From a virus (taxonomy: Duplodnaviria > Heunggongvirae > Uroviricota > Caudoviricetes): DNA of 64,000 bases. The notes below the pieces were generated by a model, which worked only from the letters and a program-made list of their open reading frames with translations, made no database searches and had not been told where the DNA came from. Position 1 is the first letter of the stretch. Each line of letters begins with the position of its first letter. Positions 42,440-43,664 of the stretch are shown piece by piece. The stretch is from IMG/VR virus record IMGVR_UViG_3300031760_000015, positions 43,641 through 107,640 of that record; one strand, given 5' to 3'. A program made the translations under genes and the position numbers.

Positions 42440-43510
42440 GTGAGGGAAATAAAATAAATAATCGCGCACAGATTATTTAAATAAAACCTTAACTTGAATA
42501 CCCATCTATAGAGTGGTAGATAAAATAATAGTCTATAGACGTTGGAGAGAAGCCATTAATGACGTCACACTCCGAAACGTAAAAAAAATTAAAGTGCCTG
42601 ACATAACGAAATATATTGGGTGGACAAGAACTCGCGGTTAAAAGAGTAATTAACCACAAAGACAAGTCTTGGGTGGTCACTATCCTCCGCGCAAGCGGGA
42701 AAGCGACATTTAATGCGGGATCGCCAAGTTGGTTAAGGCGCGAGCCTCATAAACTCGTTATCGGCAGTTCGAGTCTGCCTCCCGCAATTGACGAAAGGTT
42801 ATCTAACTCCATCTTATCTGATAGAGTATCCTAGGTTATAGATAACTAATTAGTCCATCGGCGCAAAAGGAAAGCATAATGGCTTACTTCAAACGGTCTT
42901 ATCGGCGCCTTATAAATAGGAAAAACCAAATAAATAGCCACTAGCGCGCACGGTTCGCATTATAACCCGTGACGGCATAACCTATGGGAAACCTAACCCA
43001 AAGTAAGATAGGTGTTATGCTAAGTTTGTATTTAAGTCGTTAGGAGCGACTAGAGGGAGAGACCCTGACTAATAAGCAAGTCCATTCTATGAAATGGTAA
43101 AATGAGCAGCAATGCGGTAATACCGGTGCACCGGTAGCAAAGTTACCCTGGCTCCACAATTATTTTAGAAGATAAGACTTGAGCTTATCTCGGGCTATGA
43201 AGCAAGTGCCGTGCCGCAGATGCGGTGCTTAGTAGAGCCTATGTGGGTTTAGCGTGTCAACCACAATGCGGATAGGTATTAACCGAAAGAAAACACGCTT
43301 TAATGGCGCCTTATCCCAAGCCTTTTCGCGGCGGCGCTATAAGTACCAAAAGGTATTATTTAATACTGAGCGTGAAACAAAGAGGGAACCTGTAGCTGTC
43401 ACAGGGTGACTTTGACAGACGAGTAATTGCCGTGAAGTAATTCGGTCGGTAGCAGGGCTCGGTCGTTACAACAGTGGATGCATACGCTTGTTAGCCCTTT
43501 TTTATCTGGC
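42440..43510 (+). ncRNA. about 1.1-kb GC-rich (45-50%) ORF-free structured transcript with an embedded tRNA-Met, ending in a T-run; candidate large structured ncRNA (ROOL/GOLLD-like) or intron-derived RNA
   Basis: no ORF; many GC hairpins (GTCACAGGGTGAC, GATAAG..CTTATC, CCGGTGCACCGG); AT-rich coding context. Confidence 0.35.
42714..42787 (+). tRNA. tRNA-Met(CAT)
   Basis: acceptor TGCGGGA/TCCCGCA, anticodon loop CTCATAA, T-arm GGCAGTTCGAGTCTGCC. Confidence 0.55.
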
Positions 43511-43664
43511 GTTCCGCGGCCAGGATACTTTGCGGACGATATATAATGGGTTTTCAGTACCTGTTAAAACTGAATTGATTCGGGAGGAAGTGTCCGTAGA
43601 TGAACTTCTCGGAGTAATCGCCATAATCGAATCAGCCGTGCGGCTGGCTTAAATGCCGCAGTAT

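Follow-up and report, generated by a model that had tools for sequence, protein, structure and literature searches.

Positions 42440-43664 of the 64,000-nucleotide (nt) stretch of phage DNA analysed here (the window; IMG/VR record IMGVR_UViG_3300031760_000015, class Caudoviricetes) probably belong to a polycistronic tRNA/small-RNA operon of ~1.5 kb, in which three tRNAs are interleaved with about ten autonomous RNA cassettes that would be cut into separate RNAs. An earlier sequence-only reading of this DNA had proposed one large structured noncoding RNA with an embedded tRNA-Met. The region is probably not a single large RNA, as about a dozen cassettes vary independently of one another in 25 related regions, one of them being a full-length drum RNA. 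All operon features described below lie on the plus strand.

INPHARED phage records gave no match with megablast or blastn, the window being from an uncultivated phage without an annotated relative. With the flanking RNA-ligase protein (encoded at 41746-42396) as query, 15 IMG/VR loci were obtained from phage contigs of up to ~170-210 kb, and DNA-pattern scans added further loci, all on IMG/VR or metagenome contigs. Filtering left a non-redundant set of 25 related regions (loci are numbered L003 and so on), presumably mostly from rumen or gut samples, judging by the sample identifiers. With a pattern for the 3′ loop of cassette H (see below), 9 of the 11 new loci in viral contigs were chance matches in coding sequence and two (L030 and L031) were real. 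The motif of cassette Ib gave only chance matches among those listed for genome contigs (a Prochlorococcus coding gene) and pointed to no host.

BLAST and E-INS-i alignment split the region into blocks with sharp edges, named L1, L2, A-F, G (drum), H, Ia, ins, Ib, J and K. Their presence or absence varies block by block and independently over the 25 regions: drum and F are found in 5, A in 5, D in 7, C in 11, B and E in 12 each and Ia in 17, while the order and orientation of the cassettes are constant. In other relatives the slot of C is occupied by a different element of ~130 nt, and in some the drum slot holds an "H2"-type domain. In L006, L008 and L009, identity is 90-100% for the shared cassettes and 72-75% for the DNA of the adjacent ligase gene. 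Conservation so far above that of the neighbouring protein genes implies strong constraint and/or recent lateral exchange of cassettes, in an island that also has homing endonuclease genes. Across the 25 regions the unit as a whole is not conserved colinearly, and the supported helices are all local. One RNA built around a conserved core would not be expected to show such a mosaic.

It is covariation in the relatives, and not folding energy, that argues for structured RNA here. The hairpin density pointed out earlier is thermodynamically weak, with a minimum free energy (MFE) z-score relative to shuffles of -1.5 for 42788-43664 and of -3.2 for the leader (42436-42713, L1 plus L2); the bona fide drum alone has a z-score of only -0.6, so that such scores are uninformative. 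The structure itself is borne out by the comparative alignment that the sequence-only reading had proposed as a check, which shows compensatory changes in the leader, C, H and Ib. The leader, C, H and Ia/Ib make up at least four covariation-supported modules that lack an Rfam 15 match and are found in this phage clade only.

Cassette H (43304-43505) is ~200 nt long, with two proposed pseudoknots and no Rfam match. It comprises a 5′ hairpin (GGCRYY/RRYGCU), a proposed 5′ pseudoknot with conserved pairing of UCCC (43314-17) and GGGA (43384-87), hairpins at 43396-43418 and 43425-43442, and a 3′ pseudoknot (43443-48/43460-65 with 43454-59/43493-98), followed by a U-run (43498-43503). Over 40 pairs in 13 distinct sequences, paired cells amount to 91.3% compared with 83.0% after shuffling, and compensatory changes affect 19 of the 40 pairs compared with 10.8 on average in the shuffles; neither value was reached in any of 500 shuffles, a control that is not a probability. 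Slid controls gave 36-51% paired cells, and an independent RNAalifold analysis scored 14 of 32 pairs as compensatory. Hairpin 43396-43418 occurs in four complementary versions (CUGUCA/UGACAG, GUACAA/UUGUAU, GGCCGU/ACGGUC and UUGCAG/CUGCAA), and the helix closing the 3′ pseudoknot ahead of the U-run varies likewise (AGGGCU/AGCCCU, AGGGGU/ACCCCU and AGUGG/CCACU). H represents a family of at least three subtypes, which have in common a 5′ domain, GGCRYY-UUAUCYC...RRYGCU followed by AAGAGGGAAC, and differ in their 3′ domains. The H covariance model (R1) has a single strong match in the window, of 222 bits, and gives 40-73 bits for the subtypes of relatives; it found no second H in the window and none in the more distant ligase-bearing loci L012-L015.

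The drum RNA (Rfam RF02958) directly precedes H at 43192-43303. Its match covers model positions 1-112 of 112 and scores 70.8 bits, well above the gathering threshold of 43 (E = 7.6e-13 in a 1.7-kb scan), its conserved nucleotides GGGUU...AACCACAA...CGAAAGAAAA are intact, and all helices are present with only two non-canonical pairs. Orthologues at the same position in L003, L006, L008 and L009 score 67-75 bits, and the Rfam scan detected no second copy elsewhere in the window. The small hairpin F (43163-43191, from folding) occurs only in the same five regions as drum and is, judging from this distribution, a clade-specific 5′ extension of drum. Scanning revealed no rho-independent terminator directly after drum, the next U-run being located 195 nt downstream, past H. 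According to Weinberg et al. 2017 (PMC5737381), drum RNAs are not in 5′ untranslated regions (5′ UTRs), usually have an intrinsic terminator directly 3′ and are linked to a particular neighbouring protein family. That family is said to have a relationship to DUF3800-associated genes; no DUF3800-type Pfam match was present in the open reading frames (ORFs) within ~8 kb of the drum described here. This drum resembles the published ones in matching the full covariance model and in lying outside a 5′ UTR. It differs from them in being inside a tRNA operon, with hairpin F upstream, the structured RNA H directly 3′ and no adjacent terminator. Drum being a known RNA, this copy is a new family member in an unusual place, a tRNA operon, and lacks an adjacent terminator. 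Divergent extra drums (44-52 bits) occupy a second site in some relatives, at 9934-10030 of L005 (upstream of a tRNA-Leu), at 1290-1386 of L110, and as a tandem pair at 422-532 and 621-725 of L111.

Among the remaining cassettes, L1 (42436-42497) forms a very stable hairpin at the transcript 5′ end with an MFE of -15.1 kcal/mol (z = -5.0; none of 200 shuffles is as stable) and is 96-98% identical in relatives. L2 (42498-42713), a leader cassette of ~215 nt located 5′ of tRNA-Met, has 34 pairs in RNAalifold, 7 of them compensatory, over 10 variants; it is missing in some relatives, where the promoter runs almost straight into tRNA-Met. Cassette C (42946-43027) is a two-hairpin element of ~80 nt (21 pairs, 5 compensatory; RNAalifold), and Ia (43506-43535) is a small H-type pseudoknot in which CUGGC/GCCAG is combined with CCGC/GCGG. 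Direct reading gave compensatory variants of both Ia helices, CCAC/GUGG in L062 and GUGGC/GCCAC in L047. Cassette Ib (43574-43633) is pseudoknotted, nearly invariant and always positioned 5′ of the next tRNA in every relative found, its presence in all regions being by construction because Ib served as the search anchor. RNAalifold on 13 variants gave 17 pairs for Ib, two of which swap U-A and C-G (7:6 and 7:5), and its pseudoknot GGAAGU/ACUUCU shows one G-C to A-U swap (L096 versus L137). A mini-ORF in Ib (AUG AAC UUC UCG GAG UAA after GGAGG) was discarded, as its AUG is lost in many variants. Between Ia and Ib the window alone has a 38-nt insertion (43536-43573), a hairpin by eye, that replaces the linker GCUUU.

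Cassette A (42789-42860) is a long hairpin (94-100% identity; MFE z = -1.9) with too few variants for a covariation test, and D (43028-43112; 95-100% identity) has sequences too alike for one. Cassette B (42861-42945), closed by GGCGC/GCGCC, is highly conserved, and its structure is weakly supported, with 1 compensatory pair out of 12 (RNAalifold). Cassette E (43113-43162) is a hairpin that occurs with or without D or drum and holds a perfect 14-nt palindrome, ACCGGTGCACCGGT, at 43122-43135. This palindrome may fold into a hairpin whose loop is UGCA, serve in kissing or dimerisation, or be bound, as DNA, by a protein; most of its pairing is retained in the L006 and L004 variants. The two cassettes that flank tRNA-Glu are J (43634-43664), a short GC hairpin from folding that is kept in part of the relatives, and K (43740-43817), the folded spacer between tRNA-Glu and tRNA-Ala, which is 95-100% identical in six relatives.

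The three tRNAs were identified by ARAGORN and the Rfam tRNA model. The embedded tRNA-Met (CAU anticodon), recognized already in the sequence-only reading, is located at 42714-42787 (56.8 bits; CCA is not encoded), tRNA-Glu (UUC) at 43665-43739 and tRNA-Ala (UGC) at 43818-43892. At Rfam gathering thresholds the region contains these tRNAs and the drum RNA, which leaves ~1000 nt without an Rfam explanation (drum covers only 112 of ~1225 nt). The G + C content of 42440-43664 is 43.9% compared with 33.1% for the whole window (composition profile); the enrichment, put earlier at 45-50% against 30%, is real and a little lower as measured. The earlier claim that the DNA lacks an ORF holds under every stop-codon reading: within 42397-43970 the longest stop-free run on either strand is 85 codons in the standard code and at most 141 codons when any single stop codon is recoded, and each forward frame contains 28-44 stops. 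A recoded protein gene was looked for on this basis and none was found.

A σ70-type promoter, TTGACT-17-TGnTATAAT, is present at 42400-42428; it agrees with the consensus at 11 of 12 positions and has an extended -10 element, in line with the consensus promoter previously noted at 42400. Transcription would start near 42436. The promoter block (42397-42440) is found in every relative and in at least 11 further copies in the window, where the block of ~45 nt (TTGACTT...TGATATAATATTTATA) also starts at 26620, 27056, 33791, 37025, 38374, 40153, 41211, 45019, 45226, 46590 and 48933. This repetition suggests that one strongly conserved promoter class may drive many short units, including several tRNA islands. 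A consensus scan of 42330-44588 revealed the 42400 site as the only promoter-like sequence in forward orientation. Given that none lies within 42430-44588, tRNA-Glu and tRNA-Ala would depend on the 42400 promoter. The transcript had been proposed to end at the T-run near 43500, which is unlikely. This run consists of six T (43498-43503) directly 3′ of a covariation-supported helix. No promoter separates it from the tRNAs downstream, and in relatives without Ia the U-rich junction is likewise found, 5′ of Ib. A better candidate is the terminator-like hairpin at 43892-43935, which has a 10-bp stem followed by GUUUUUAC, is kept in L004 and L009, and is probably the operon end; the consensus terminator scan misses it because its loop exceeds 8 nt. 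A single precursor would then extend from ~42436 to ~43935, i.e., past the T-run, and measure ~1.5 kb rather than the ~1.1 kb originally proposed.

In the proposed pathway, one copy of the repeated strong phage promoter drives this single transcription unit, and host enzymes would cut the precursor, with RNase P acting on the 5′ ends of the tRNAs and either RNase Z or exonucleases on their 3′ ends; the A/U-rich linkers between cassettes are probably cut too. Ordinary tRNA processing excises embedded tRNAs from transcripts. Excision of tRNA-Met would part a leader of ~280 nt from the 877-nt inter-tRNA segment, and splitting the transcript in this way counts against one large RNA. The products would be the leader and nuclease-resistant RNAs of 30-200 nt (such as drum, H, C and Ia/Ib) that act in trans. 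The cassettes would thus behave as independent genes, with related phages carrying different subsets in the same order. Their setting suggests that the cassette RNAs may take part in how the phage handles tRNA/RNA damage or turnover during infection, since the genes nearby encode an RNA ligase, a Ro60 homologue and a Pth2-like hydrolase as well as a Y-RNA-like RNA and at least 26 tRNAs (see below).

Could the 877 nt at 42788-43664 instead be one modular "ornate" RNA with a GOLLD- or ROOL-like function, in which drum, H and Ib are sub-domains? The niche is that of ROOL and GOLLD, the G + C content is continuously high, there is no internal promoter, several pseudoknots are present, and D, E, F and drum co-occur; moreover, one relative has a ROOL in the same island. 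We nevertheless regard this possibility as unlikely. Rfam scans, proposed in the sequence-only reading and run here, detected neither GOLLD nor ROOL (RF03087, gathering score 99.1 bits) in 42300-44000 at E≤10, and neither ROOL nor any other large RNA in the whole window at E≤1. In the same kind of scan the ROOL of L010 (5490-6055), a positive control, scored 305.6 bits. A universal 3′ core of the GOLLD type is lacking: only Ib is kept across all relatives, with or without Ia or H directly 5′, and drum, H and all others are absent from many. In addition, each tested cassette folds by itself with its own closing helices, and no pairing between cassettes was seen. The scans of 42300-44000 at E≤10 likewise gave no group I or II intron, RNase P RNA or tmRNA, which the same reading had listed, and no YrlA or Y RNA. 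The Y-RNA motif GNCGAAN0-1G occurs once (GACGAAAG at 42790-42797), with ~0.6 occurrences estimated by chance, and was dropped. What the earlier proposal had right is the setting, structured RNA beside phage tRNA genes, as in L010; for ROOL, phage DNA near tRNA genes is a matter of context and does not define membership. In L010 the ROOL lies ~1.2 kb 3′ of the orthologous ligase gene, preceded by its own promoter block and a 51-amino-acid ORF, where the window has drum and the other cassettes.

That the cassettes lack a trans role, being decayed tRNAs or cis-acting spacers of the tRNA precursor (processing guides, nuclease barriers or stabilisers), would fit their position, always between tRNAs, with J and K directly flanking tRNAs, Ib always preceding the next tRNA and L1 being a classic 5′ stabilising hairpin. 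We consider this improbable, as drum and H (200 nt, two proposed pseudoknots and 19 covarying pairs) are over-elaborate for processing signals and relatives express the same tRNAs without most cassettes. Decay is argued against by near-identity beside diverged genes and by the finding that no cassette other than the tRNAs themselves matches the Rfam tRNA model at E≤10. Small selfish or mobile DNA elements, perhaps moving with homing endonucleases and with an RNA structure that is incidental or serves mobility, would account for the patchy distribution, the sharp boundaries and the near-identity across diverged backbones. The GIY-YIG and HNH genes in the island, the former found in two relatives only and at 98-99.5% identity, point the same way. 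Fixed cassette order and orientation and compensatory substitutions, which indicate selection on the RNA fold, make this explanation very unlikely, as does the lack of any cassette duplicated elsewhere in the window; no terminal repeats or target-site duplications were noticed at the breakpoints, although these were not searched for systematically. Least credible by far is the idea that recoding or frameshifting conceals a protein gene. The more distant relatives L012 (4918-4991) and L013 (9555-9628) do have a suppressor-type tRNA(CUA), called "Pyl" by ARAGORN, and these phages may reassign TAG or read through it. The stop density and the short stop-free runs given above rule out a recoded ORF here, no suppressor is found among the window's 26 tRNAs, and the substitutions are paired in helices and not codon-like.

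Several points weigh against the interpretation of the region as an operon of separate RNA cassettes. The separate mature RNAs are predicted from sequence and not observed, thermodynamic z-scores are unremarkable, and covariation supports cassettes A, B, D and E weakly or not at all. For H, the 5′ pseudoknot UCCC/GGGA shows one-sided G-U changes only and none that are compensatory, hairpin 43396-43418 and the 3′ pseudoknot, both misaligned by MAFFT, had to be anchored visually, and the shuffle control cannot be taken as a probability. The relatives form a small sample from one clade and many are >85% identical. Furthermore, D, E, F and drum occur together in all five drum-bearing regions, and some cassettes may hence form larger units.

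The closest working analogue of the proposed operon is found in phage T4, in which two small stable RNAs, species 1 and 2, are co-transcribed with the tRNA cluster and processed from the same precursors. They too are structured non-tRNA RNAs in a phage tRNA unit that are matured by the tRNA machinery. The present region differs in having many more and more elaborate cassettes with combinatorial turnover, and no sequence relationship is claimed. With ROOL and GOLLD the region has in common the phage or prophage setting by tRNA islands and the wealth of pseudoknots. It differs in matching neither model, in lacking a large core and in its independently varying cassettes. Among GOLLD RNAs, env-38 lies downstream of a Met-tRNA, and the GOLLD 5′ region is variable, with tRNAs sometimes in its linker (PMC12286853). 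A further comparison is the Ro60-YrlA ribonucleoprotein (Chen et al. 2014, PMC4201824; for phage Ro60, PMC12135203), as the window encodes both a Ro60 fold and a YrlA-like RNA. On these grounds, the biology of this phage would include small structured RNAs that work with proteins of RNA repair or quality control. The cassettes at 42440-43664 match neither the YrlA nor the Y RNA models, and that Ro60 binds them is pure speculation. Fremin and Bhatt 2023 surveyed IMG/VR, the same viral contig collection, and reported thousands of unnamed structured-RNA motifs, including tRNA-like ones (PMC10690425). The text of that article describes no cassette array in tRNA islands, and some of the cassettes may already be among its anonymous candidates.

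Drum, ROOL and GOLLD are conserved, elaborate phage RNAs of orphan function, and the locus places drum in a phage tRNA operon. A more far-reaching idea, to which we give little credence, is that the cassettes constitute a combinatorial RNA toolkit doing the job of ROOL or GOLLD, which in other phages are found in this island, either by forming a higher-order particle of RNA or RNA and protein around the co-transcribed tRNAs or as tRNA-pathway decoys or co-factors against tRNA-targeting host defences. As decoys or co-factors, they would act together with the phage Ro60, Y RNA and RNA ligase. If this were true, H would, with its subtypes, represent a new ornate RNA class, and the alternation of drum and ROOL would for the first time give access to the function of three orphan RNA families. 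Individually the facts are incremental (a new drum member and clade-restricted motifs), and their value is moderate at this stage. Even so, the locus is a compact test system, i.e., one operon of 1.5 kb with natural variants that differ by single cassettes and with candidate protein partners. The operon reading also suggests that phage "tRNA islands" are really mixed tRNA/small-RNA islands, the RNA content of which turns over like protein morons.

The window, which also encodes phage structural and lysis genes, contains at least 26 tRNA genes (ARAGORN), and several genes around the operon relate to RNA repair (those with coordinates are on the plus strand). A minimal ATP-dependent RNA ligase (Pfam RNA_ligase, PF09414) is encoded directly upstream of the promoter region. 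The gene at 38483-40111, 2.3 kb upstream, encodes a DUF2828 and DUF7788 protein with a weak VWA_2 match, assigned to phrog_850 ("RNA-binding protein"). Searches of PDB sequences with this protein and its profile gave no match, and fold comparison alone revealed the relationship to Ro60: the 11 best PDB fold matches of its AlphaFold2 (AF2) model (pLDDT 80.9) are all Ro60/TROVE structures (E 1.7e-9 to 2.8e-7), including Ro60 of the Thermus phage phiLo. As modelled, the product is a structural homologue of Ro60 (TROVE plus vWA). Adjoining it is a gene (37605-38108) for a Pth2-like, archaeal/eukaryotic-type peptidyl-tRNA hydrolase (62.9 bits, below the NCBIfam cut-off of 126). The YrlA-like RNA at 49866-49987 matches positions 23-88 of the Rfam YrlA model with 30.6 bits, which is under the gathering score (69). 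The matching part (49898-49972) corresponds to a permuted tRNA-like domain with T-arm, stem and D-arm, closed by a 9-bp stem (UUAUGCGGU/ACCGCAUAG), and this RNA is a likely partner of the phage Ro60.

Directly downstream of the operon, 43971-44612 encodes a GIY-YIG/NUMOD1 homing endonuclease, and an HNH homing endonuclease is encoded at 47385-47954 (both by Pfam). In the two relatives that have the GIY-YIG gene, its 98-99.5% DNA identity despite a diverged ligase gene (72-89%) indicates that the gene itself is mobile.

Insertions of 44-65 nt are present in tRNA genes at 47895-48017 of the window (plus strand) and in L003 (5441-5557), L006 (7974-8090), L011 (8286-8402), L012 (5108-5248) and L010 (2892-3022). 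In the two that were read closely, the tRNA-Asn(GUU)-like gene of the window and the tRNA-Glu of relatives, the insert is in the anticodon loop and has the common ends GUSAGAUAG...GCACCA; the tRNA-Glu insert folds as a hairpin. The inserts are far too short for group I introns. Conceivably, they undergo protein-dependent splicing, with an RNA ligase nearby, or mark a disrupted tRNA that evades defences.

A weak match to the abiF motif is present at 45806-45842 (28 bits against a gathering score of 37). Finally, other ORF-free islands of 640-800 nt with a G + C content of 39-45% lie beside tRNA genes at 33798-34442, 45469-46105, 46597-47393 and 51226-51865, and these may hold further uncatalogued structured RNAs.

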